Assembly (NCBI GenBank): GCA_964593215.1
Contig: CAZQIA010000002.1
Location: forward strand, 1-45,871
DNA: 45,871 nucleotides
Reading direction: 5' to 3'
Origin: an uncultured Gammaproteobacteria bacterium
GTDB lineage: Bacteria > Patescibacteriota > Microgenomatia > Levybacterales > GWA1-39-11
Under the pieces are notes generated by a model. The model had not been told where the DNA came from and made no database searches. It saw only the letters and a list, made by a program, of their open reading frames with translations. Both the position numbers and the translations under genes were made by a program. Each line of letters opens with the position of its first letter. Within the stretch, counting starts at the first letter, position 1. Shown here piece after piece: positions 2,923-38,335 of the stretch.

Positions 2923-3543
2923 TTAAGGACGCAGCCCTTCATATACGTAATATTCTCCATATTTTTCTATACAAACATATGGAGTATTTTTTCTCATATT
3001 CTCAGCATGCCCAGGAGATTTTATCCATTCTGAAACTACATCATTTGAGTTTGAGTTCATTGCAATATTTTCTGTTACCTCATGGTATGAGTATGGGAGT
3101 GTGTGATTGTTCACTCTGTTTGTGAAGCCCGCATGGGAAAAATCTGCTGAAATTTCTTGCGCACGCAACCTTGCAAAAGAACAAGTATCTGAATTTGACA
3201 CAACAGGAGAAAGACCTTGGGATTTTCTGTAGTCATTTACTTGAGACAAGAGGTCTGACATTCCTCCAGAGAAATTTGTTTGGATAGGTGCTCTAGTCGG
3301 AAGCGGTTTTTTAGTAGGAGTGGGAATAGGAGAAGGTGTGGGAGTTGGGGTTGGAGAGGGGGTTTTTGTAGGAGTGGGAACTGGGGTTTTTGTAGGTGTT
3401 AGGGGGACAGGGGTTTCTAAATTGCTTTGAATATGCTGCGTTCTTTTTTCTGAGAATACATACGTTTTTGCTGTAAGAAAGAGTAGAAGAAAAAGAAACG
3501 TTGAAACAAATAAAAATAATAGCAAAATCCTGCCTTTTTGCAT
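2923..3543 (-). CDS. Secreted/anchored CAP (SCP/YkwD-like) domain protein with Pro/Thr-rich linker
   Basis: N-terminal hydrophobic anchor (ILLLFLFVSTFLFLLLFL) and a PT-rich linker. The CAP pattern is YRKSQGLSP...FSHAGF...ENIA...WIKSPGHAENM. Confidence 0.7.
   Translation of the reverse strand: MQKGRILLLFLFVSTFLFLLLFLTAKTYVFSEKRTQHIQSNLETPVPLTPTKTPVPTPTKTPSPTPTPTPSPIPTPTKKPLPTRAPIQTNFSGGMSDLLSQVNDYRKSQGLSPVVSNSDTCSFARLRAQEISADFSHAGFTNRVNNHTLPYSYHEVTENIAMNSNSNDVVSEWIKSPGHAENMRKNTPYVCIEKYGEYYVYEGLRP
3285..3420 (-). repeat. Low-complexity tandem repeat encoding the (T/S)P(T/V/I)P(T)K linker of the CAP protein
   Basis: Plus strand shows reiterated gtaggagtgggaa / ggtgtgggagttgggg units. They translate as TPTKTPVPTPTKTPSPTPTPTPSPIPTPTKKP. 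Confidence 0.7.
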
Positions 3544-9330: not shown

Positions 9331-12300
9331 TTAGTTTGAGTGAATTTTAGTTCCTCCAATTATTTTTGTACCTCCTCTGATGCTGGAGAGCGGTCTTTCC
9401 GAAGCAGCGGATGATAGGGAGAAGAAGGTGCTTGGAGAACTTTGATTGTTATATTCTGTAAGCGTCCATGCTGCACTTCTGGCAGTTGAGGAAATATGTA
9501 CTTCATCTATTGCTCCATCAAAAGCCATACTAGGTGCGGGGTTATTTGGGTCATTACCAAATTGCAGGTTGTTTGCAGAGGAATGTATAGAGGCAGGAAC
9601 AGTTCCTGATAGACTGCTGTCGTCTAGTGCCCCGTTAACATACATGTGTAATGTTTGTCCTGAAGCGCTATAAACACCTGTAACATAGTACCATGTACCC
9701 AGAGATCTTGTAGTATTACTGTAGCGCTGGATTGAGTCACTTCCTGTTCCTGAAATCTGTATTGCCCAGTTTTGAGGACCTAAGTCTTTTGATGACTTGA
9801 GGATGTATCCTCTATCAGTTCCCGTATGGCTTTGTGAAATAATGTGGCCATCGTCATTCCCCGAAGGGTTGTTAACAGCCTTAACCCAAGCGCTTAGCGT
9901 AAGGTCGCCTGTGATTCTCAGTGAAGAATTATTGCCTGCATCTATTTTATCTGATGTAGCGTTAAAAAGAGCTCCTCCGTCAATTTGTCCCGTTGTTGCA
10001 TCAACACTAGTTATGGTTCCGTCATTTGGGTTACTTGTTGAATCTACTGCAGTAAGCGTTGTGCCATTAGGAAAATGCCAGACACCTTTATAGCTACTAT
10101 CCCAGACATTTGTTGCATCACTTTGATCTGAGGCTGCGGCATTTCCATAATACATATAAATAGTCGTATTAACGGTGCTTGACAACGCAGGAATTTTTAC
10201 CCACGCCTCAAGCGCACCTGTAGAGTTATTATATTTCTCAATCTCGTGAGGAATTTTAGTGGTTCCATCCCCTGAGGTAAACAAAATGTCATTTCCAGTG
10301 GAAAGTGCATTAGTTGATAGATCGGAATCTGATGCAAGCTTAATAAGCATAGGAAAATCTGTTAAGTCCCCGCCAACTTTTGTATGGTCTATTATTATAG
10401 TTCTTCTTTTTGTCCATGAGTTGTTATACCATCCAGTATAGTATCCGGTAATAGTCCAACAGCTGTTGTTGCTGATATTTAATGATCCTGTTGCAGTAAG
10501 GGGACTATTTGATCCTCCGCAAGCGTTTGAGTCTCTAACGCTTAAGAGAGAGAGGTTTGCAGTTCCATTTACAGTTAAATTCCACTGAGAAGTTGGAGTA
10601 GTGCTCGCAAGCGTAAGAATTGCTTCAGATGAACCTCTTAATGTGAGCGTATTTGTAACTGTTGTAGTGGTGCCATTTGTAAAGTTTATAGTTTTTCCAG
10701 GAGTTGTTGAAGTCAAATTATAAAAAGAAGTGGATCCAGATATAACACTAGTAGTGCCGGAATCATTTAAAGTAAGCGTGCCTGATCCTGCTACAAAAGA
10801 ACCGCCGGATCTTGCAAAGTTTCCTGCAAGCGTAATACTGCTTGGTGCGTTAAACGTTCCCGCACTTTGAGAATAGTTACTTGTTACAGTAAGGCTTGAC
10901 GGCGGGGAAAACGTTCCCGATCCGCTAATAGTCAAATTTGAATACGTATAGCCCGCAGGAAGTGTGGTATAGGTACCGCTTCCGCTATACTCAACCGTGC
11001 TGCCTGAAGAGAGAGTGTTAATAGTGGGTATAGTTTCTCCACCCTGAAGCTTAAATGTTGCGGACGCGCCTATGGTAAACTGGTCGTCCACAGTAAGATT
11101 GTGCCCTGCTAAGTCCAGTGTTCCTGAGGTTAAGATAAGGTCTTGACCAGTTCCGTCAAAAGCAATGTCATTTGCTAGACTAACCGTCCCTGATGGTTTA
11201 TTTATAGTAATAGTGCCGGTAGGAAAGCCTGCGGTACCCGTGTAGGTGATAACCTGGTTATTAGTTCCATTAAGAGTAATAGCAACATCACCTGTTCCTC
11301 CATGTGCTGCTGCATTTGTTATGTTTCCCTGGGCGTTAATTGTTCCTGGTCCGCTGATAATGTTTCCACACCCGTCATCCATAGTCCAAGTGTGTGCAAT
11401 AGTGATGGTTGTTCCAGACGCTATAGATGTACTTGGACAATTTCCTCCTTGGTAAAGATCATAAAATGTAGTGTTTCCTGTTAGGGTTGTATTAGTATTT
11501 CCCTCACCAATTATGACCTCACTAGAATATGTAGTTGCATCTACTGATCCTTGGACTACTTCCCAGCTTGTTGCAACGCCTTGACTGTCTTTTATGACAA
11601 ATGTTCCGGATGATTTATTAATTTTTAAGGATGGCAGAGAGCCTCCGCTACCCCCGCTCCATGTCTGAGTTCCAGTGCCGTTTACCGTAATAAGAGCGTT
11701 ACCTGTAAGACCGTTGTCAGCATCATGAGTAATATCTCCTTGCACGGTGATGTCTCCTGGTCCGTTAAGCGAAGAGTTTATCGCATTAACGTTAAGTGTT
11801 CCCCCAATCCTAAACGTTTTTCCAGAGCCAATACTGTATGTTTTTCCATTACCGGCAAAGGTTACATTGTTGTAGGTTTCAGAACTAGTAGATATTGTTG
11901 AATTACAATTACCAAAGTTTAGGGTTCCTCCGTTGGCGTTAAACGTTCCTCCGCTTACGTTCCAGGTAGTGCACAGATCCATTGTTCCAGATGTTGCAGT
12001 GAAGGTTCCATTTGACTGGGTGAATGCTGTGTTTGCCACCGTAGTTAGGGATATGTCTTGAGAACCTCCTGAAAAAACAGAGCTAGCCGCAGATTGAATA
12101 TAGCCTGTTGCTGTTGTAATGCTAAGTGAACGAGATTGGGTTATGGTATTTGCGTATGTTAAGATTTTAAGCGATTGAATGTTTCCACCAAAGGTGGCGT
12201 CAATTGTTGATGCGTTTGCGGTGGAATTTGATGAACAGGTGGTGGTACTACTGTCAAACACCGCAATATCTGTAGAGGCAATAGTTGCATTTGCACCCGC

Positions 12301-14276: not shown

Positions 14277-15488
14277 CTATTCATGTCTCAATGCATCAAT
14301 TGGAGATAAGCTTGCTGCTCTTCTTGCTGGATACAGTCCAAAAATAATTCCAATCAGGGTAGACACTCCAACTGCAATAATTATTGAAAAAACATTAATA
14401 ATGAAAGGAATGTTTACAATAAGAGAGATTATAAAGGCTAGAGTAATGCCAATAAAAATTCCAACACTTCCCCCTATTAAAGACATAACAACAGACTCAA
14501 CTAAAAATTGAATTAATATGTCTCTTTTTCTTGCGCCAATAGATTTTAACAGTCCTATTTCTTTTGTTCTTTCAGTAACTGAAACCAGCATTATGTTCAT
14601 GATTCCTACACCTCCTACTACTAGAGAAATGCCTGAAATTGCGGCAATAAGCGTAATTAATAGATTGGTTATAGTCTGTACTGTTGAGATAATATCCTTT
14701 GCAGAAGACATTTGGAAGTCATTCTTATCCCCTTCTTTTAGTCCATGTTTTTCCCGCAATAATTCTTCCACGTCTTTCATGGTTTGGTTTAACGCCTGTG
14801 TGTCTTTTACGCTTACGTCAATTTCCTGCAGTTTTTCCTCTCCCAAAATTTCATTTGTCATAACTTCATAAGGGATAAATATAGCGTTGTTAAAAAAACT
14901 TCCAGCAAGTACGCTTGAGGACTTAATTACTCCTATAACCCTAAATTTTTTACTTCTTATCTTGACAGTTTCTCCTATTGGAGATGTATTCTCTCCGAAA
15001 AAAGTTTTTGCTATGTCCTGTCCCATAACAACAACCCGTGCTTTTGAAGCTTCCTGTTCAGCGGTTATAAAATCTCCATACACAATTTCTGGTCTTAAAA
15101 TGCTTACTATATTTGAGGTAACTCCATAAACAAGCGGACTTTCTTCTACGTCATTAGCTGTAATTTTTTCAGCTGACATAGCGTTTGGAACTACCTCTTT
15201 AATATTTGTCAGAGAAGTATCAGTTTTAATTGCCTCAAGATCTTCCTGCGTTAATGTATCTGCTCCTGCAATAGTTGATATTTGACTAGTTCCTGGGTTT
15301 ATTTGAAAATAGTCAGTTCCAAAAGAAGTAAACTCATTTGTAATAAAAGAAACTGCCCCCTGTCCTAAGGAAACTATAAGAATTACAGCAGAGATTCCAA
15401 TGATCATCCCAAGCATGGTAAGAGAAGTTCTTAGTAAATTGCTGTAGAGCGCATCAATTGCTGAAAGAGTAAGTTCTTTTAATTCCAT
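14277..15488 (-). CDS. MacB-type ABC transporter permease (FtsX family with extracytoplasmic domain), triad 2
   Basis: 403 aa: TM1, ~230-aa extracytoplasmic domain, then an FtsX bundle with VGGVGIMNIMLVSVTERTKEIGLLKSIGA. Confidence 0.85.
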   Translation of the reverse strand: MELKELTLSAIDALYSNLLRTSLTMLGMIIGISAVILIVSLGQGAVSFITNEFTSFGTDYFQINPGTSQISTIAGADTLTQEDLEAIKTDTSLTNIKEVVPNAMSAEKITANDVEESPLVYGVTSNIVSILRPEIVYGDFITAEQEASKARVVVMGQDIAKTFFGENTSPIGETVKIRSKKFRVIGVIKSSSVLAGSFFNNAIFIPYEVMTNEILGEEKLQEIDVSVKDTQALNQTMKDVEELLREKHGLKEGDKNDFQMSSAKDIISTVQTITNLLITLIAAISGISLVVGGVGIMNIMLVSVTERTKEIGLLKSIGARKRDILIQFLVESVVMSLIGGSVGIFIGITLAFIISLIVNIPFIINVFSIIIAVGVSTLIGIIFGLYPARRAASLSPIDALRHE

Positions 15489-16183
15489 TATAAATGTGTA
15501 TCTTGGGTAATTTTCCCGTCAACTATTTTAATTGTGCGTTTTGTATAGGATGCAACATGATCTTGGTGTGTTATTACAATAATGGTGTGTCCTTCTTTAT
15601 TAAGGTTCTTCAAAAACGTCATAATCTCGCTTGACGTTTTCGTGTCTAAATTTCCAGTTGGTTCGTCAGCAAGAATAATTGACGGATCCATAACAAGGGC
15701 GCGTGCTATTGCAACCCGCTGTATTTCTCCTCCGGAGATGTGGTTTGCTTTGTTCTGCGCTTTTTCAGCAATATGTACTTGAGAGAGTGTTTCAATTGCC
15801 CGTTTTTTGCGTTCAGATGAAGGTATTCCTGCGTACATCATGGGACGCTCAACATTTTTTAGCACAGATATTTTAGGAAGTAAGTTAAAACTTTGAAATA
15901 CAAACCCAATTTCTTTATTTCTAATTTTTGCAAGTTCATCATCCGTATAAGTTGAAATATCTTGTCCTTTAAAAAAATACTTGCCAGAGGTAGGTGTATC
16001 AAGCGCTCCCATGATATGCATGGTTGTTGATTTTCCGCTTCCCGAGGGTCCCATTATGGAGACAAATTCTCCTTCATAAATCTTAAGAGAAATACCGTTT
16101 AATGCTTGATAAAACGTTCCTCCTTCAAGCGGATACTGTTTTGCTACATTCCTGAACTCAATAACAGGTTTCTTTGATGGCAT
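15488..16183 (-). CDS. ABC transporter ATP-binding protein (MacB/LolD type), triad 2
   Basis: Walker [10 protein letters not shown], signature [15 protein letters not shown], Walker [12 protein letters not shown]. Overlaps the permease gene by 1 nt. Confidence 0.9.
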
Positions 16184-16199
16184 AATGTCAATTGCGGAC

Positions 16200-17444
16200 T
16201 TACAAAGATAGAAATCCTGACCGTTTTAACTGTTCGTTTGGTAGCGCTACGATTACCTCCTGGCCCTCTTGTACTCCTTTTAATATTTGCGTTCTCTCTT
16301 TTCCAATAATTCCTACTTCAATCGGAATATATACGACTTCATTATTTTTAAGAATTCTTACCGCCTTCCCTCCTTTATAAGGTTTTACAGAAGTATTTGG
16401 GACACTTATAACGTCTGGAAGTTTTTTTGTAATAATGTCAGCATCTAAGCTCATTCCTGGCCGTACATTCGTATTATCACCTTCCAAGGAAATGTACACA
16501 TTAAATGAAGTTACCCCCTGATTTTTTGTGCCAATGGTGTCAAGCCTAGAAACTGTTCCCCTGTATGTTTTATTAGGTATGGCGTCTAATGAAATTACAG
16601 CACTCTGTCCTTCTTTCACTTTTATAATGTCCTCTTCTCCCATTGGGATAACTACCTCGTACTTTGCGAATTTCAATATGGATAAAACCGGATTAAGAGT
16701 AGAGGTGGTGTGAGCAACAACAGAGTTTCCTGTAGCAACTGAAAGATTTGCTATTGTTCCATCTGCTGGTGAGGTGACTGTTGTATTCTGAGTTGCTTGG
16801 TATAAAATCCACGTTGATGAAGCTTGCGCATGCGCTTGCGCAACAACTGTTTCCTGGTCTTTAAATTTTTTTTCTGCAGAAAGCCAGTTGTCCTGAGCTA
16901 TTTGAAACTCAGCAGCTTTTCTGTTTTCTTCATTTGGGGTTTTATCACTTCTTTCATAGGTAGAAGTTGTAGACATGTCTGTAAAAATCTTCCATTTTGC
17001 ATACATCTCAGATCTCAGGAGATTTTTATTTGATTCAGCGCTGTCCAGAAGTGTTTTTGCCATAAGATAATTTGCGAGCGCAGATTCCTTCTCCTGTTCT
17101 GATGCCGAACTTTCTACAGAGAATAAATTTTCCCCTACGTATACTTGACTTCCATTTTTTACATACACATCTGTTATAAAACCTGTTGCTGGTGAATATA
17201 TTGGAACGGAATTGTCTGTGCTTATGTTTCCAGATTCGGAAACTGTTTCTGTAATGTCTGTTTTTTGCGCTTTCTCAAGAAGATAATTTGGTTTATTTGT
17301 TGCGCGCTGTACCTGAAAGATTATGACACCAACAATAATGAGAAAAACGAAAAGAGTGATCGCCTTTTTAGCAAGAGATGCTTGTTTGAAATAATACCAG
17401 AGAAAAAGATACTGTTTTTTTGCTTTTTTAGAGTTTTTTACCAC
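16200..17444 (-). CDS. HlyD-family membrane fusion protein, triad 2 (GTG start)
   Basis: 414 aa. TM anchor, lipoyl-like VKNGSQVYVGENLFSV, coiled coil and a beta-barrel C-terminus. Confidence 0.75.
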   Translation of the reverse strand: MVKNSKKAKKQYLFLWYYFKQASLAKKAITLFVFLIIVGVIIFQVQRATNKPNYLLEKAQKTDITETVSESGNISTDNSVPIYSPATGFITDVYVKNGSQVYVGENLFSVESSASEQEKESALANYLMAKTLLDSAESNKNLLRSEMYAKWKIFTDMSTTSTYERSDKTPNEENRKAAEFQIAQDNWLSAEKKFKDQETVVAQAHAQASSTWILYQATQNTTVTSPADGTIANLSVATGNSVVAHTTSTLNPVLSILKFAKYEVVIPMGEEDIIKVKEGQSAVISLDAIPNKTYRGTVSRLDTIGTKNQGVTSFNVYISLEGDNTNVRPGMSLDADIITKKLPDVISVPNTSVKPYKGGKAVRILKNNEVVYIPIEVGIIGKERTQILKGVQEGQEVIVALPNEQLKRSGFLSL

Positions 17445-17453
17445 TTCAAGCGT

Positions 17454-17481
17454 ATTATAGTATTTTATTTTGAATTATCAA
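17454..17481 (-). promoter_or_regulatory. Internal promoter TTGATA-16-TATAAT ending 9 nt before the GTG at 17444
   Basis: Reverse complement reads TTGATA attcaaaataaaatac TATAAT acgcttgaa GTG. It sits in the 66-nt gap between the two triads. Confidence 0.45.
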
Positions 17482-17510
17482 GTTTTTTAAGACTTTATTG
17501 GGAAGAAGTG

Positions 17511-18704
17511 TCACTCGTATCTTAAAGCTTCAATTGGGGAGAGTCGGGAGGCGCGTATTGCTGGTGCCATTCCAAATATTACGCCTACCAAAATAGAAAA
17601 CGCAAAAGCAAGAATTATAGACCATGGGGTAACGGCAGAAACCAAAAGCCTAGCAAGAATTAAGGATCCGCCAAGTCCTAAAGTAATTCCAATAAGTCCC
17701 CCAGAAAGTGAAAGAATTACTGCTTCTAATAAAAATTGTGCCAAAATATCTTTCCTTTTTGCGCCCAATGCTTTTCTCAGACCTATTTCGCGAGTGCGCT
17801 CTGTAACAGAAACAAGCATTATATTTGCGACTCCAATTCCTCCAACCAATAATGAAATTGCAGCAATCCCGCCTAAAGCCAAAGATAATATATTTGTAAT
17901 ATTAGAAATAATCTCAAGGCTGGACTGAGCAGATTGAACCGTAAAATCATCAGCTGTTAATCTTTTTAGAAGAATTTTTTTCATTTGGTCCTGAATAAAC
18001 GGTACTTGGCTGGCATTATTTACTGAAACGTAGATTGCATTAATTTGTGTTATTCCAAACTGCCTGCGGGACGCGCCTATAGGAACTATAATAGTGTTAT
18101 CTTGATCAATCCCAAAAATTGCACCCCTTGCTTTCATAGTTCCTATAACCGTATAAATATTATTTCCCACAAAAAACCGTTTTCCTATTGGATTTTCATT
18201 GGGGAATAAGTCTTTTATGGCTGTTTGTCCTAAGATTGCAACATTTGCACCCGTTCTTTCCTGTCCTTCAGAGAAGAAAATCCCTTTTTCAACTACAGCA
18301 TTTTTAACAGTTTGTGTATAGTTTGCGGTTGTGCCTAAAATTGCAACACCCTTATCAGTTTTATTTTTATACTTTGCAGTTGCTGCTTGTTGAACAACAG
18401 GTGCAACGCTTGCTAGATTTCTTAATCTTAAGCGTATGTTCTCAGCGTCTTGGGCAAGCAATTTATTTATAACAACTCCTCCTGGGGTTCTTGCTCCAGT
18501 TGAGCTACCGGGAATAACAAAAACTAGGTTTGATCCAAAACCCTGGATTTGATTTGTAATATAGCCTTGAAGACCAGTACCTACTGAAACAAGCATAATA
18601 ATTGCAAAAACCCCAATTATTATGCCAAGCATAGTAAGAAAACTTCTTAATTTATTTGCAACTAGAGCCTTCCAAGAAAGCCTAATTAATTCTCGTGTAT
18701 CCAT
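17511..18704 (-). CDS. MacB-type ABC transporter permease (FtsX family), triad 1
   Basis: 397 aa with the same architecture as 14277-15488. Contains VGGIGVANIMLVSVTERTREIGLRKALGA. Confidence 0.85.
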   Translation of the reverse strand: MDTRELIRLSWKALVANKLRSFLTMLGIIIGVFAIIMLVSVGTGLQGYITNQIQGFGSNLVFVIPGSSTGARTPGGVVINKLLAQDAENIRLRLRNLASVAPVVQQAATAKYKNKTDKGVAILGTTANYTQTVKNAVVEKGIFFSEGQERTGANVAILGQTAIKDLFPNENPIGKRFFVGNNIYTVIGTMKARGAIFGIDQDNTIIVPIGASRRQFGITQINAIYVSVNNASQVPFIQDQMKKILLKRLTADDFTVQSAQSSLEIISNITNILSLALGGIAAISLLVGGIGVANIMLVSVTERTREIGLRKALGAKRKDILAQFLLEAVILSLSGGLIGITLGLGGSLILARLLVSAVTPWSIILAFAFSILVGVIFGMAPAIRASRLSPIEALRYE

Positions 18705-18705
18705 A

Positions 18706-19380
18706 TTAACTTACAATAAGTCCATCTATGAGTTTAATAATTTTTTTTGCTTGTTTTGCGATATCCAACTCATGAGTTATTAAGATAATTGTTTTGCCTT
18801 TTTTATTTAAGTCTTTGAGAATTTTCATAACATCATTTCCTGAAGAGGTATCTAAATTACCTGTAGGTTCATCTGCAAGTATAATTTCTGGATCATTCAT
18901 TAATGCACGGGCTATTGCAACGCGCTGCTGTTGTCCTCCAGAGAGTTGATTGGGTCTATTATGGATTCTTTCTCCTAATCCAAGTGTAGTTAAGATTTCT
19001 TTCCCCCTCATTTCCCTTTCAGACCTACTCATTCCTGCATATATAGCTGGGAGTACTACATTTTCAAGCGTGGTTGATCTTGCAAGTAAATTAAATGATT
19101 GGAATACAAATCCTATTGTTTTATTTCTTAGACTTGAAAGGTGATCTTCAGAAAATTTCTCTACGCTGATCCCATTGAGATCATATTCTCCTGAGGTTGG
19201 GGTATCTAATAAACCCAGAATATTCATTAAAGTAGATTTTCCAGATCCGGAGCGTCCAGTAACTGCAATAAAATCCCCCTTTTTGATAGAAAATGAAATC
19301 CCTTTTAGGATAGGAGTAACCACATCTCCCGTAACGTATTCTTTTTTTATATTTTTGAGGCTGATTATTGTGTCTGCCAT
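18706..19380 (-). CDS. ABC transporter ATP-binding protein (MacB/LolD type), triad 1
   Basis: Walker [10 protein letters not shown], signature [15 protein letters not shown], Walker [12 protein letters not shown]. Confidence 0.9.
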
Positions 19381-19387
19381 GGAAGCG

Positions 19388-20455
19388 TTATTTGTTTTTA
19401 TATCCTGGAACTAGTGTTGGGTCGGATACTATCTGATCTCCTTCTGATAGGCCAGATAATACTTCTGAAGACGTGTCATTCTGAATCCCTAATTTGAGAG
19501 TTTTTTTCACAAATCCTTTTTTAGTTTTAATGTAGATCTTATTATCTTCAACTAAACTTGCCAGTGGAACTGCTAAGACGTTTTGTTTTTTAAGTAAAAT
19601 AATTTCCGCGTTTCCGTTCATTCCAACTCTGTAGCTAAGATTGTTGGATTGAGACATTGCCGCTTTCACATCATACGCGTTTCCTCCCGTAGAGGTTGTA
19701 TGAGTTACAAAATCAATAGATTGAACAGTCAGATAAAGTGTTTTATCCGGGTACGGATCTAGAGTTACTTTTACCTGTTGTCCTTCTTTTATCTTTGCAA
19801 TATCCGCCTCATCAACCTCCATCTTAAACTCTAAAGAGTTGGGATCCGTAATCGTAAAACCAGTAGTTCCTGCAATAGCTGTAACGCCGTTAGTTTTTGC
19901 ATCAGCTTTTGTAATAATTCCGGAAATTGGAGATGATAAGACAGACTGCTGTTTTGCCAGATCCTGAAGCTCCACAGAAACTATTGCCTTGTCTAAATTA
20001 AACTGGTTATCTTGTAGAATACGTTTCATTGAGTCGTTTAATGCTTGATCCGGGCGTCTATTCTGGTAGTTATCCTGAGTCTGGTCAAAAGTATCTCTTT
20101 GTAAACTGTAACTGATAAGCGTTGACTGTAGGTTTTTAAGTGCTGTGCGTTGGTCAAGCGTTGCAATAAGTGCTCCCTGTTTTACACTATCTCCTTTTTT
20201 CACTCCTACATAAGAAATAGTTCCTGAGATGGGAAACGTTAAATTCACCTCTTTTTCCGCGGTAATACTACCAGTTATAGCAAGAGACTCCACAAATTCT
20301 TTTCTGGAAACAGTTTCTAGAGGTACTGGTTTTCCTGGTTTAGGACGCAAGAAGTATATTCCTACCCCAATAAGAATTATAAGAATTAAGGAAATAATTT
20401 TATGTTTAAAGATGAATGATTTAATTCTGCTTGTTGTGTTCTTAATTTTTGTCAT
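19388..20455 (-). CDS. HlyD-family membrane fusion protein, triad 1
   Basis: 355 aa. TM anchor, lipoyl-like VKKGDSVKQGALIATLD and a beta-barrel C-terminus. Confidence 0.75.
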   Translation of the reverse strand: MTKIKNTTSRIKSFIFKHKIISLILIILIGVGIYFLRPKPGKPVPLETVSRKEFVESLAITGSITAEKEVNLTFPISGTISYVGVKKGDSVKQGALIATLDQRTALKNLQSTLISYSLQRDTFDQTQDNYQNRRPDQALNDSMKRILQDNQFNLDKAIVSVELQDLAKQQSVLSSPISGIITKADAKTNGVTAIAGTTGFTITDPNSLEFKMEVDEADIAKIKEGQQVKVTLDPYPDKTLYLTVQSIDFVTHTTSTGGNAYDVKAAMSQSNNLSYRVGMNGNAEIILLKKQNVLAVPLASLVEDNKIYIKTKKGFVKKTLKLGIQNDTSSEVLSGLSEGDQIVSDPTLVPGYKNK

Positions 20456-20541: not shown

Positions 20542-21294
20542 ATGGCAGACGAAGAGTTTTCGTTAAAGCAGTATTTTGTTCCATTTACTAATGTCAAGGC
20601 TGTTTCATTTATTATATTGATCGGCTTTATAGTATTTGCAAATTCCTTAGTTAATAGTCCTGTATTAGATGATAACCGTTACATTTTTAATAACCCCGAT
20701 TTTCAATCTTTTAACATTCTCAATAATTTTGAGCCTAATATGTTCAATACAATAGGACAATACAGGGCTTTGACCTCATTATTTTTCAACATAGAATCCC
20801 AGTTGTTTCATGATTCAGTTTTTTTCTTCCATGTTCTACAAATCTCGCTACACATCTTGAATACTATTCTCGTATATTTTGTGTTTAGGAGATTTTTTAC
20901 ACAAAAATTCTTGGTGTTTTTATTGTCAATCCTTTTTCTGATACGTCCAGTTCAGACGGAATCCGTATCGTACATATCGTCTTCGGGAAGTGAATTGTTT
21001 TTTGTATTTGGTTTCTTAGCATTCTTGATAAGTATTCAAAAGACTGTAACTTTTAAGAAAATGCTCGCTTCCTGGCCATTTATGGGAACAGCAACAGCAA
21101 CTGCACTAATATCTAATAATCAAACAGGTACTGTAGATTTTGATGTAACTTCTGATGTCCAATCATTTATAAGTAATTCATCTGCAAATTATGGATGGTT
21201 AATTAAAAAGACAGATGAAGGTGCAAATGGCAGAGTACAGTTTGGCTCCAGACAATCCTCTTCAACCCCTCAGCTCATTATTACTCCGCAATAA
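20542..21294 (+). pseudogene. Chimeric ORF: N-terminal ~170 aa of a TMTC/PMT_2-like polytopic membrane protein fused in frame to the C-terminal ~70 aa of a secreted DNRLRE-like carbohydrate-binding-type domain
   Basis: The N-terminal pattern ANSLVNSPVLDDNRYIFNNP...YRALTSLFF...HVLQISLHILNTILVYFVF normally opens 500-700-aa TPR membrane proteins. After ~21050-21090 the sequence switches to ...GTVDFDVTSDVQSFISNSSANYGWLIKK...VQFGSRQSSSTPQLIITPQ and looks more GC-rich by eye. Confidence 0.4.
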
Positions 21295-21308
21295 ATTAAC
21301 ACCTTTCC

Positions 21309-21338
21309 TTGACGCGAGGGCCTGTATTCTGGTACAAT
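21309..21338 (+). promoter_or_regulatory. Strong sigma70-type promoter TTGACG-18-(TGg)TACAAT of the nusA operon leader
   Basis: cTTGACGcgagggcctgtattctggTACAATg. Both hexamers are near consensus, with a TG extension. Confidence 0.5.
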
Positions 21339-21366
21339 GATTCCTACAATAATAATGTAAGTAAAG

Positions 21367-21392
21367 AGATGGGACAAACCCATCTTTTTTTT
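21367..21392 (+). terminator. Canonical intrinsic terminator (7-bp stem AGATGGG/CCCATCT, 5-nt loop, T7-8 tail)
   Basis: agatgggacaaacccatcttttttttac. It lies downstream of the chimeric ORF and also ~22 nt downstream of the predicted start site of the 21309 promoter. Confidence 0.7.
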
Positions 21393-21411
21393 ACAAAAAG
21401 TAATAAGGTTA

Positions 21412-21469
21412 CCCTGCGTTGAATAACACAGGGTGACAGAAAAAATTGAGAAATTTTATTTTTTCTGTC
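21412..21469 (+). promoter_or_regulatory. Bipartite hairpin element, copy 1 (22-nt hairpin + T + 35-nt hairpin), 19 nt upstream of the nusA ATG
   Basis: CCCTGCG-ttgaataa-CACAGGG, then t, then GACAGAAAAAAT-tgagaaatttt-ATTTTTTCTGTC. Same geometry as 37648-37705. Confidence 0.6.
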
Positions 21470-21488
21470 AAACACAAGGAGATACAAA

Positions 21489-22553
21489 ATGGCTGTATTA
21501 CAAAGATCAGAATTTGCGCTCGCACTAAACCAAATTGCTTCTGAAAGAGGAGTGGATGCTTCTGTGATTATAGAGACTATGAAAGGGGCAATTCTTGCCG
21601 CGTATAGAAAAGATAATCCGTCTGAAGAAGAAGATTCAGTGTTTCAGGTTGACCTCAATGAAAACACCGGAGAAACAAGGATCTTAAAAGAAGGAAAAGA
21701 TATAACCCCTCCTGGATTTGGAAGAATTGCCGCACAAACCGCAAAACAGGTTTTGCTTCAAAAAATTAGAGAAAAAGAAAAAGATGCAATCATAGATGAA
21801 TATTCTAAAAGATTAGGAACCGTAGTTAATGGAATGATTTTGCGTTTTGCTGGACCTAATATCATTATGGATATTGGAAAAGCAGAGGCCATACTTCCAG
21901 CAAATCAGAAAATCCCTAATGAACAGTATTTCTTGAATAAAAAAATGCCTGTTTACATAATGGAAATCTCTGAAGAAAAGGGACGGGAAATTTTAGTTTC
22001 CAGAACCCACACAGGGCTTATAGAAGGTCTTTTAAAACGGGAAGTTCCAGAGGTTGCAGCAGGATCTGTTTTGGTAGATAAAATTGTGAGAGAGCCTGGG
22101 AGCAGAGCAAAAATTGCAGTTTCATCAAAGCAGTCAGGAATTGATCCCGTGGGTTCATGTGTAGGACAAAAAGGAGTAAGAATTCAAGCAGTTATTGATG
22201 CTCTGGATGGTCTTGAGAAGATCGATGTTATCCAGGGAAGTTCTGACCCAATTAAATTTATTACAAATGCGCTATCTCCAGCAAAAAACATAGAGGTTAA
22301 AGTAGATGAAAAAGAAAAAATTGCGCATGTTACCGCTCCAAAAGAAGAAATGCCTTTAGTAATTGGAAGAGATGGTCAGAATGTGAGACTTGCAGGAAAA
22401 TTAACCGGCTACAATATAGAAGTTAAAGATGGCGTTCCATCTGTTGTTGCTGAAGAAGTAGAAGAAACGCCAAAAGAAGAGTCCGAAACTCCAGTCTCTA
22501 AAGAAGAAACACCAGAAGTAAAAGAATCAGAACCTGAAAAAGCTTCAGAATAA
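21489..22553 (+). CDS. nusA: Transcription termination/antitermination factor NusA
   Basis: AAGGAG SD. NusA N-terminal domain, S1-like domain and two KH domains (DPVGSCVGQKGVRIQ, VIGRDGQNVRLAGKLTG), plus an acidic C-tail. Confidence 0.9.
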   Translation: MAVLQRSEFALALNQIASERGVDASVIIETMKGAILAAYRKDNPSEEEDSVFQVDLNENTGETRILKEGKDITPPGFGRIAAQTAKQVLLQKIREKEKDAIIDEYSKRLGTVVNGMILRFAGPNIIMDIGKAEAILPANQKIPNEQYFLNKKMPVYIMEISEEKGREILVSRTHTGLIEGLLKREVPEVAAGSVLVDKIVREPGSRAKIAVSSKQSGIDPVGSCVGQKGVRIQAVIDALDGLEKIDVIQGSSDPIKFITNALSPAKNIEVKVDEKEKIAHVTAPKEEMPLVIGRDGQNVRLAGKLTGYNIEVKDGVPSVVAEEVEETPKEESETPVSKEETPEVKESEPEKASE

Positions 22554-36685: not shown

Positions 36686-37639
36686 ATGTCTAAAAAAGTA
36701 GTCGTGATAGGCGGCGGGACAGGCGTTTTTACAGTTCTAACAGGACTTAAAAAATATCCGTATGAGTTATCAGCAATCGTGTCGATGGCTGATGATGGCG
36801 GATCCACAGGACTTTTAAGGGAAGAATTTGGAACACTTCCTCCAGGAGATATCAGGCGTGCATTGGTTGCTTTATCCAATACCGACAATAAAATTGTTTC
36901 AGATCTTTTTAATTACCGCTTTAAAGGAAAAGGTACCTTATCAGGGCATAGTTTAGGAAATTTACTCTTGACTGCTTTAGAAAAAATAACTGGAGGATTT
37001 GACACCGCAGTTCAGGAAGCAGTTAAAATACTTAACGTTCAAGGTAATGTTATTCCTGTAACTTTAAAATCTACTAAATTAGTTGCTGTTCTTGAGGATG
37101 GAAATGAAATAAGCGGGGAAACAAACATAGATATTCCCAAACACGACGGTAAAGTTCCAATAAATCATTTGTTTTTAAACCCGGAAGTTCCAGCAAATCC
37201 TGCAGCAATTCAGGCAATTAAAGAAGCTGATTTTGTGATTTTGGGTCCGGGTGATTTATACACGTCTATCCTTCCAAATTTAATAATAAAAGACATTGCA
37301 CAAGCAATTAACGAAACATCGGCAAAAGTAATTTACATAGTAAACATTATGACTAAATACGGTGAAACATATAATTTTAAAGCGCACGATTTTGTAAAGG
37401 TAATTCAGAATCATTTGGGCAAGACAGTAATAGATTACAGCATCATAAATACAGAGATGCCGACAGGTGAAATTCTTAAAAGATATGAAGAAGATAAAGA
37501 AGAACCGGTTTTGTATGATGAAAAGAATTTCAAAAATGGTGTAAAAGTTATTACCGGAGAATTTCTGAGAAAAGGAAAGTTCTTAAGGCATAATCCTCAA
37601 AAATTAGCAAAAGCTTTATCTGGAATTATAGATGGATAA
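36686..37639 (+). CDS. yvcK: YvcK/CofD-family protein (gluconeogenesis factor / UPF0052)
   Basis: VVVIGGGTGVFTVLTGLK...SMADDGGSTGLLREEFG..PPGDIRRALVALS. Confidence 0.8.
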   Translation: MSKKVVVIGGGTGVFTVLTGLKKYPYELSAIVSMADDGGSTGLLREEFGTLPPGDIRRALVALSNTDNKIVSDLFNYRFKGKGTLSGHSLGNLLLTALEKITGGFDTAVQEAVKILNVQGNVIPVTLKSTKLVAVLEDGNEISGETNIDIPKHDGKVPINHLFLNPEVPANPAAIQAIKEADFVILGPGDLYTSILPNLIIKDIAQAINETSAKVIYIVNIMTKYGETYNFKAHDFVKVIQNHLGKTVIDYSIINTEMPTGEILKRYEEDKEEPVLYDEKNFKNGVKVITGEFLRKGKFLRHNPQKLAKALSGIIDG

Positions 37640-37647
37640 GAGTGTAG

Positions 37648-37705
37648 CCCTGTGTGAAATAACACAGGGTGACAAAATGAATTTAAATATTGTATTCATT
37701 TTGTC
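37648..37705 (+). promoter_or_regulatory. Bipartite hairpin element, copy 2, between the yvcK-like stop and the nth start
   Basis: CCCTGTG-tgaaataa-CACAGGG, then t, then GACAAAATGAAT-ttaaatattgt-ATTCATTTTGTC. Confidence 0.6.
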
Positions 37706-37714
37706 AAAAATAGC

Positions 37715-38335
37715 ATGAATACAAACGACAAGGCTAAAAAAGTCGCCAATGAGTTAAAAAAACTATATCCTAACCCTAAAACCCCTCTTAATCATGGAAG
37801 TCCTTGGGAGCTCTACGTTGCGGTTGCGCTCTCCGCTCAGCAAACAGATGTTGGCGTAAACAAATTAACCCCGACTCTTTTTGCAAAGTATAAAAAAATT
37901 GAAGATTATAGAAAAGTTGCCCTTGAAGAATTTGAGAAAGATATAAAAAGCATAAATTTCTATAAAGGAAAAGCAAAAGCCATTAAAAAAGCAGCAGAAA
38001 TTGTGCTGGATCAATATAAAGGAAAACTTCCTGAAACTATGGAACAGCTTCTAGAACTCCCGTTTATAGGACGTAAAACTGCAAACGTTATTTTGCAGGA
38101 AGCGTTTGGAAAGACTGAAGGAATTGTGGTAGATACTCACGTAAAAAGGCTTTCAACTTTGTTTGGACTAACAAAAAATGCAGATCCGGTAAAGATTGAA
38201 AAAGATTTGATGGAACTTCTACCTAAAAGTTTATGGCATGATTTTGCCCTCGGATTAATCTACTACGGTCGTGAATACTGCAAGGCTTCATGCAACCACA
38301 CAGGATGTCCATTGCGAGAATACATTGAAAAATAA
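37715..38335 (+). CDS. nth: Endonuclease III (HhH-GPD) with an atypical 3-Cys C-terminus
   Basis: LPFIGRKTANVIL (HhH + catalytic Lys) and VDTHV. The C-terminus YCKASCNHTGCPLREY has only three Cys, and the protein contains no other Cys. Confidence 0.8.
   Translation: MNTNDKAKKVANELKKLYPNPKTPLNHGSPWELYVAVALSAQQTDVGVNKLTPTLFAKYKKIEDYRKVALEEFEKDIKSINFYKGKAKAIKKAAEIVLDQYKGKLPETMEQLLELPFIGRKTANVILQEAFGKTEGIVVDTHVKRLSTLFGLTKNADPVKIEKDLMELLPKSLWHDFALGLIYYGREYCKASCNHTGCPLREYIEK

Follow-up and report, generated by a model that had tools for sequence, protein, structure and literature searches.

A twin-hairpin repeat at gene junctions of Candidatus Levybacteria, a candidate low-copy mobile element of REP/MITE-like type

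Background

In the REP families, stems of 6-13 bp show complementary changes between sub-families and occasional G·T pairs, and the elements are co-transcribed (PMC3733652). They are found downstream of coding regions, between co-directional ORFs, and carry an unpaired GTAG tag (PMC3733652). The following REP criteria were used here: a GC-rich stem-loop of 20-40 bp, a GTAG tag (or GYAG, GYRG, GTRG, GTMG), usually more than 100 copies per genome, often clustered or arranged as inverted dimers, and a RAYT/Y1-transposase gene in the same genome with the repeats on its flanks.

MITEs and other short structured repeats (Correia/NEMIS, RUP, ERIC and the Rickettsia palindromic elements) are another group to which the element described below is similar. 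Like it, they are non-coding, shorter than 100-200 nt and folded into stable hairpins; they are also present or absent in close relatives, inserted at gene boundaries and transcribed with their neighbours. The palindrome-associated elements derived from IS200/IS605 (PATEs) are hairpin-dependent and strand-specific and produce no target duplication. Stable helices between cistrons are also known from the phage T7-type intercistronic RNase III sites and from the malE-malF REP stabiliser.

Hardly any short structured repeats appear to have been described from the very small, densely coding genomes of CPR/Patescibacteria, and our search of the literature on this group returned none. Here we describe a non-coding twin-hairpin element of ~60-75 nt from Candidatus Levybacteria, which is, on balance, probably a low-copy, non-autonomous, REP/MITE-like mobile hairpin element. 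The window (the whole stretch of DNA that was analysed) is an entire contig of 45,871 bp. For the NusA homologues, the source names Candidatus Levybacteria/Levyibacteriota, a CPR/Patescibacteria group.

Structure of the two copies in the window

A sequence-only reading of the window had described two 58-nt intergenic segments of the same geometry, and both were found (21412-21469 and 37648-37705; Table 1). Direct counting returned the identities it had given for the copies (19/22 for the first hairpin, H1, and 25/35 for the second, H2) and the three stem differences in H2, all of which are double changes (positions 5/31, 8/28 and 9/27). Its geometry had to be corrected in two respects. The single T placed in front of a 12-bp stem pairs with the A after TGTC, so that H2 has 13 bp (TGACA...TGTCA) and no spacer to H1. 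H1 had also been given as a 7-bp stem in both copies, which is fully paired only in copy 2; in H1 of copy 1, CCCTGCG faces CACAGGG, and the resulting defect is C·A on the + strand and G·T on the - strand.

H1 (GC-rich, 7 bp) and H2 (AT-rich, 13 bp) are unrelated hairpins which directly abut and stack into a quasi-continuous helix of ~20 bp (7 + 13 bp). Whether folded as RNA or as DNA, and whichever strand is taken, the twin hairpins are the minimum-energy structure (z-scores -5.4 to -8.7). The similarity of the copies reaches ~72-75 nt (21401-21476 and 37637-37712). Although they reside in the same genome, they are only 75% identical to each other (direct repeat D3), and thus no recent burst is indicated. 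The element ends in ..GT[T/A][A/G]CCC.. on the left and in ..TGTCAA[A/G]A.. on the right, and 3' of H2 there are A-rich tails (AAACAC, AAAAAT or AAGAAC). The TGTC of H2 ends 19 nt 5' of the ATG of nusA in copy 1 and 9 nt 5' of that of nth in copy 2. When the window was searched with the pattern CCCTGYG-N6-10-CRCAGGG, the two H1 hairpins already reported (21412-21433 and 37648-37669) were the only matches, with 0.00 expected from 100 shuffles.

The alternative hairpin of copy 2 competes with H2 (-27.6 vs -31.9 kcal/mol) and is the minimum-energy structure in copy 2 of a JGI strain (see below). It has no counterpart in copy 1 or in the third copy (L145) and thus is not a family feature.

Table 1 Features of the two element copies in the window
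Feature	Position	Strand	Description
Copy 1, whole element (flank + H1 + H2 + flank)	21402..21476	+	covariance-model match 91-100 bits; direct repeat D3
H1, copy 1	21412..21433	+	CCCTGCG / TTGAATAA / CACAGGG; 6/7 pairs, C·A mismatch at stem position 6
H2, copy 1	21434..21470	+	perfect 13-bp stem TGACAGAAAAAAT / ATTTTTTCTGTCA; loop 11 nt; abuts H1
Copy 2, whole element	37638..37712	+	covariance-model match 100-101 bits
H1, copy 2	37648..37669	+	perfect 7-bp stem CCCTGTG / TGAAATAA / CACAGGG; GTAG directly 5'
H2, copy 2	37670..37706	+	perfect 13-bp stem TGACAAAATGAAT / ATTCATTTTGTCA; loop 11 nt
Alternative 10-bp hairpin, copy 2	37690..37724	+	TTGTATTCAT / ATGAATACAA; 3' half of H2 pairs with the nth start codon

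Gene context and the nusA leader

The genes next to the copies are those that had been guessed: NusA (21489-22553) follows copy 1, with the IF2 gene 3' of it, and an HhH-GPD glycosylase (nth-like; 37715-38335) follows copy 2. A CofD/YvcK-like gene (36686-37639) precedes copy 2, which fills the 75-nt gap between the CofD stop codon (37637-37639) and the nth ATG (37715). Upstream of copy 1 we observed a promoter-like TTGACG-18-TACAAT with TG (21309-21338) and the nusA leader terminator, a canonical hairpin followed by T8 (21367-21393). Copy 1 is located between this terminator and the nusA Shine-Dalgarno sequence/ATG. The name "nusA leader", which copy 1 had been given, is therefore not appropriate, as the copy lies downstream of the leader terminator and is distinct from the leader.

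Directly 5' of nusA, the window (21309-21393) and L124, L125, L126, L127 and L139 share an extended -10 promoter (TGnTAyAAT) together with a GC-rich short hairpin and a T-run. This arrangement is the actual nusA leader and is conserved across Levybacteria. It resembles the autoregulatory, NusA-dependent attenuator known from Bacillus subtilis.

Third copy, covariation and apparent drift

A third copy was found by structural scan on the + strand of L145 (MAG GCA_050255815.1) at 9347-9400. It consists of CCCAGTG-GGTA-CACTGGG followed directly by TGACAGAACGAGT-(10 nt)-ACTCGTTCTGTCA, and ends 6 nt 5' of the ATG of a small membrane-like ORF. A covariance model made from copies 1 and 2 alone recovered it with 64.2 bits (E 3.3e-12) in 356 kb. 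The window copies were also compared with a JGI strain: copy 1 is unchanged in L124 (JGI contig Ga0172278_1800; NusA 99% identical), and copy 2 is present in L149, the CofD-nth site of this strain. The known set comprises 3 loci, 5 sequences and 4 distinct sequences (alignment A2). At all three loci the element is in sense orientation with co-directional genes, with a stop codon or a terminator on its 5' side and the next start codon 6-19 nt 3' of H2.

In alignment A2 (4 distinct sequences), 97.4% of cells are paired and 5 stem pairs are changed on both sides. The L145 copy added one of the covarying pairs, a change from T-A to A-T in H1; further double changes are in H2. The observed pairing or covariation score was reached by 0/500 shuffles, and only 36-55% of cells were paired when partners were slid by 1-3 columns. 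The structural covariation evidence is stronger than the two copies of the sequence-only reading gave. That reading had argued for selection on structure rather than chance. The geometry is non-random, and the case for selection or templating for structure is strengthened by the third copy and the 5 covarying pairs.

Template switching is known to be able to create or maintain perfect hairpins and to mimic compensatory substitutions (PMC8794818). If such quasi-palindrome correction during replication had produced the perfect stems and the "compensatory" changes here, the covariation would be silent on function. The H2 arms, perfectly complementary in 3/4 distinct sequences, agree with this explanation, which we nevertheless regard as improbable: it leaves unexplained the H1 + TGACA...TGTCA architecture and the similar loops shared by three unrelated loci in two lineages, and the JGI copy retains an uncorrected T·T and G·T. 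Template switching is a way of keeping stems paired and not an alternative origin.

Loop lengths differ between the window copies and the L145 copy (8 vs 4 nt in H1, 11 vs 10 nt in H2). As the H1 loop varies in this manner, the stem matters and a fixed half-site spacing does not. This bears on the proposal of a duplex DNA operator for a dimeric transcription factor (CCCTGTG...CACAGGG, TGACA...TGTCA) or, alternatively, of an intrinsic terminator that has no U-tract. Both hairpins are palindromic, and there are a - strand TTGACA at the end of the element and weak promoter-like matches. However, the varying arm spacing is incompatible with fixed half-sites, the arms covary instead of keeping their sequence, and the -10-like hexamers differ between copies. 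As for a terminator, the tails are A-rich and not T-rich, and this genome uses a canonical hairpin with T8 just upstream. Operator and terminator together are thus given only the slightest probability. The sequence-only reading had also noted that the element lacks a U-tract and is not a standard terminator, and the terminator scan agrees with it, since the scan does not list the element; the nusA leader hairpin upstream, with its T8, is of canonical form. A promoter reading (GTGACA-N18-TATTTT on the + strand and TTGACA on the - strand) was rejected because the -10-like hexamers are not kept in other copies.

Compared with the window, copy 2 of the JGI strain has acquired T·T as a mismatch in H1, G·T in H2 and a change in a loop. 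The G·T is wobble-compatible only on the + strand, and in copy 1 the wobble is on the - strand; thus, wobble pairs do not pick a strand. The changes within the inserted copy 2 have the appearance of drift without constraint since insertion. Window and JGI strain show 0 differences in copy 1 and 6/75 nt in copy 2, as against 8-26% at four-fold sites, a contrast that would resemble purifying selection if the divergence were not mosaic, with identical stretches of 250-670 nt elsewhere. When window 37627-38335 was compared with L149, 0.5% of the bases differed in CofD and 11.4% in nth (26% at four-fold sites). This divergence step starts at the 3' end of CofD, at copy 2, and may be a coincidence, the divergence being mosaic throughout. 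A link between the copies and recombination breakpoints was considered and dropped, as breakpoints are too frequent to be meaningful.

Presence and absence at orthologous junctions

The nusA site is empty in 5 relative lineages with NusA 82-88% identical (L125, L126, L127, L139-141 and L142). In 4/5 of these, the promoter, the leader hairpin and the T-run are kept and lead straight to the nusA start; in the stretch of L142 that was read, the promoter alone was evident. At the CofD-nth site, L143/L144 (CofD 96% identical) carry no element and the two genes overlap by 14 nt, and in alignment A1 the 83-column gap of L143/L144 falls exactly at copy 2. The CofD-nth spacers of the more distant L145 and L146 (41 nt and 9 nt) have no element either. 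The third junction is empty in the window, L143, L146 and L149, where stop and start overlap or are a few nt apart. The occupied sites are mutually exclusive between the window lineage and the L145 lineage. Outgroups are empty at the nusA and CofD-nth junctions, and the empty sites of the third junction are those of the window lineage, L143 and L146.

Since the element is found at three junctions and is absent from the same sites in relatives, three independent insertions are indicated. Independent insertion explains the occupancy more simply than repeated precise loss. The presence/absence pattern that is used to recognise MITEs was found at all three loci, each being filled in one lineage and empty in others.

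The same occupancy bears on the possibility that the element is a cis-regulatory leader (riboswitch, attenuator or thermosensor) of nusA and nth. The sequence-only reading had treated the two copies as possible cis-regulators and had itself named lack of conservation at orthologous loci as the observation against this. The element lies near both start codons (19 and 9 nt), its structure is strong, and copy 2 offers an alternative pairing with the nth ATG. However, it is absent 5' of nusA in 5/5 lineages examined and 5' of nth in three, the conserved nusA leader is the other, upstream hairpin with its T-run, there is no Rfam match, and the third copy precedes an unrelated small ORF. A leader function of this kind is considered very improbable.

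Two further observations were made around nusA. In L125 (MAG GCA_050255815.1), an unrelated GC-rich long hairpin of ~70-80 nt (3445-3515) lies between the leader terminator and the nusA start, and the leader-start site seems to tolerate or attract structured insertions. There is also a strain-variable segment 5' of the nusA promoter (window 20542-21294 vs L124 6632-9805), which holds one 250-aa CBM96-like ORF in the window and a 583-aa TPR gene plus a 457-aa CBM96 gene in the JGI strain. Window and L124 do not align left of window position 21295.

Searches for further copies and for known families

A structural descriptor, in which a GC-rich stem of 7 bp directly adjoins a second stem of at least 12 bp, returned only the known copies from ~300 kb of Levybacteria sequence, and 0 matches in shuffles. 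Neither a relaxed descriptor (one mismatch per stem, both strands) nor the covariance model added any copies in these ~300 kb of Levybacteria loci. The density is ~1 copy per 30 kb (2 in ~66 kb of the window lineage and 1 in ~30 kb of GCA_050255815.1), with 0 copies in the loci of five other relatives. Both copies of the window lineage are single and in the same orientation within the ~66 kb.

Outside Levybacteria, pattern scan and blastn of viral contigs and phage genomes found nothing related. A 21-base bipartite pattern gave 11 loci and 0 true copies in metagenome contigs, a collection which apparently does not include this genome. With CCCTGNGN{7,9}CNCAGGGTGAC in genome contigs, the matches listed were mostly random GC-rich sequence and included no Levybacteria. 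The statement of the sequence-only reading that this is no named RNA family was confirmed by an Rfam scan of the window: no family reached its gathering score, and the best local hits (<=19-20 bits, E >=0.03) were far below the cut-offs.

Signs of mobility were looked for in the element and its surroundings. The ends are not inverted copies of each other, and inverted repeats occur in the element only as its two internal hairpins. When filled and empty sites were compared, no clean target-site duplication was found at copy 2 (A1) or at the L145 site. ATAAG...ACAAG flanks both window copies and is indistinguishable from chance in such A-rich sequence. No transposase gene was found in ~85 kb of this genome, and no RAYT/Y1-transposase is among the called genes of the window, L124, L147 and L149. 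The sequence-only reading had offered a REP/MITE-type repeat as the alternative to a cis-regulator. This alternative fits better than the cis-regulator, although neither the terminal repeats nor the target duplications it had mentioned turned up, and few copies were seen.

Several other identities were tried and rejected. A mini-ORF of 13 codons in copy 2, the stop of which overlaps the nth ATG, is kept in the JGI strain with a GTG start, but copy 1 and the L145 copy have no counterpart of it. Integron attC sites do not match, as the element is two separate hairpins, its ends misfit R''(RYYYAAC)/R'(GTTRRRY) in either orientation and no integrase gene is nearby. TIGR arrays and DGR hairpins do not match either: the element does not occur in tandem, and neither Tas nor a reverse transcriptase is encoded next to it. 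Homology to the CCCTGAG...CTCAGGGTGAC hairpins of other phyla was also rejected: the similarity is ~20 bits, covers H1 alone and was picked by the search pattern itself.

The hairpins of other phyla form a recurrent type of their own, (G)AGACCCTGAG-TAAAnACAy-CTCAGGGTGAC(A), which resembles H1 + TGACA, was selected by the search pattern itself and is often clustered or partly tandem. It was seen in L116 (818-1230), L101, L090, L096, L018 (4063-4134), L128, L130, L131 and L137. The hosts are a Caldisericaceae MAG (3' of rRNA and tmRNA genes), the unclassified MAG AMR_MDS_1075, an Elusimicrobia MAG and JGI metagenome contigs. The AGACCCTGAG/CTCAGGGTGAC hairpin has no match in Rfam. A second motif, CCCCGGG-ACAAG-CCCGGGG followed by TGACA, is near-identical among the high-GC IMG/VR contigs L158, L168, L172 (two copies), L189 and L250, and may be a phage regulatory or terminator motif.

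Comparison with known repeat systems

Like the REP/GTAG group (REP, SMAG and BIME units; RAYT, TnpA_REP), the element lies outside genes, downstream of coding regions and between co-directional ORFs, and shows complementary stem changes and G·T pairs. The location and the sub-family changes of REPs were both observed (three loci between co-directional genes, 5 covarying pairs). In size, H1 alone corresponds to a REP, having a 7-bp stem and a length of 22 nt (18 nt in L145), whereas the whole unit adds the 37-nt AT-rich H2. The element is bipartite, with H1 fused to an unrelated H2 without a spacer, and is not a dimer of one unit. The 5' tag is GTAG in copy 2 and in JGI copy 2, GTTA in copy 1 and GTAA in L145; the final G is lost at 2/3 loci. 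REPs number more than 100 copies per genome, in contrast to ~1 per 30 kb in the DNA seen here, and the host of the element is a small-genome CPR bacterium. The element is REP-like by its stem changes and its location; its unit size and its tag agree with REPs only in part, and membership in REP proper is not established.

Unlike MITEs, the element has no identified terminal inverted repeats or target-site duplications. Going by what is known of the family, it may be likened to PATEs in a presumed dependence on hairpins, a presumed strand-specificity and an apparent lack of target duplication. In IS200/IS605 elements, the left-end and right-end hairpins are alike and flank a longer body, whereas here two unrelated hairpins, H1 and H2, adjoin each other; nor can a conserved cleavage tetranucleotide be made out in the element. 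The likeness to the T7-type sites and to the malE-malF REP, a stable helix between cistrons, is a functional analogy only. It is drawn from predicted structure, and in contrast to those sites the element is not kept at orthologous junctions.

Proposed mobility and a possible RNA role

The reading as a low-copy mobile repeat accounts for these observations as follows. The element would have inserted independently at several tight gene junctions. The abutting GC-rich H1 and AT-rich H2 would be the features recognised in propagation, presumably as folded single-stranded DNA handled by a trans-acting enzyme, e.g. an HUH/Y1 transposase of RAYT or IS200/IS605 type. If the hairpin structure is needed for propagation, the stems would covary between copies while single copies gather stem-breaking changes. 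In a gene-dense genome, probably only sense-oriented, intergenic insertions survive. An inserted element would then be co-transcribed and would contribute at most a secondary intercistronic RNA structure, e.g. an exonuclease barrier or processing site. Such a secondary RNA role is possible, including the masking of the nth start codon by the predicted helix of copy 2.

The reverse order of importance was also considered, i.e. a selected intercistronic or 5'-UTR RNA module, the spread of which is secondary. Here, the stacked hairpins would bar RNase J/PNPase or allow RNase III-type processing, and so uncouple the stability or translation of neighbouring cistrons. Genes for RNase J and PNPase are present in the window, the element is in sense at 3/3 loci, within co-directional units and between stop/terminator and start, and its stems covary. 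In the JGI copy, one change would still allow G·U pairing on the sense strand; however, the mismatch of copy 1 is C·A there and becomes G·U only when the antisense strand is read, and the wobble evidence conflicts. Similarly, the alternative 10-bp helix which can sequester the nth start codon is confined to copy 2, and the strain changes include a pair-breaking one. The orthologous junctions are not conserved even in very close relatives, and the neighbours (nusA, nth and a small membrane-like ORF) have no common theme. We consider a selected RNA module unlikely. It overlaps in part with the mobile-repeat reading, as REPs do both.

A bolder version of the mobile-repeat reading would make the element a new structure-defined, strand-specific mobile cassette of CPR/Levybacteria, which prefers operon stop-start junctions, acts as an intercistronic switch or processing signal and is moved by an enzyme not yet linked to such repeats. 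The copy 2 helix, able to sequester the nth start codon, hints at the switch. This version is rather doubtful, and the low-copy REP/MITE-like repeat remains our preferred reading. Read in this way, the element adds a new and modest family to a well-known type of bacterial repeat, notable mainly for its CPR host and for its stop-start junctions.

The family implies that CPR genomes still harbour non-autonomous elements which are active or were so recently, and that operon junctions tolerate structured inserts of 75 nt even where genes overlap or are adjacent. It is also a caution to annotators, for such hairpins are not the same as conserved leaders or riboswitches. The covariance model (R1/R2) can be used for whole-genome surveys.

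Other features of the window

At ~20500 of the window, the coding strand switches: the long ORFs are all on the - strand to the left and all on the + strand to the right, and the AT skew changes sign. The switch could mark an origin or terminus of replication, or no more than divergent operons. Two tandem paralogous efflux modules (HlyD-like protein, MacB/FtsX-type permease and ABC ATPase) occupy 14277-20455, and their paralogy explains direct repeat D1 (15642-15766 and 18848-18972, 70% identical).
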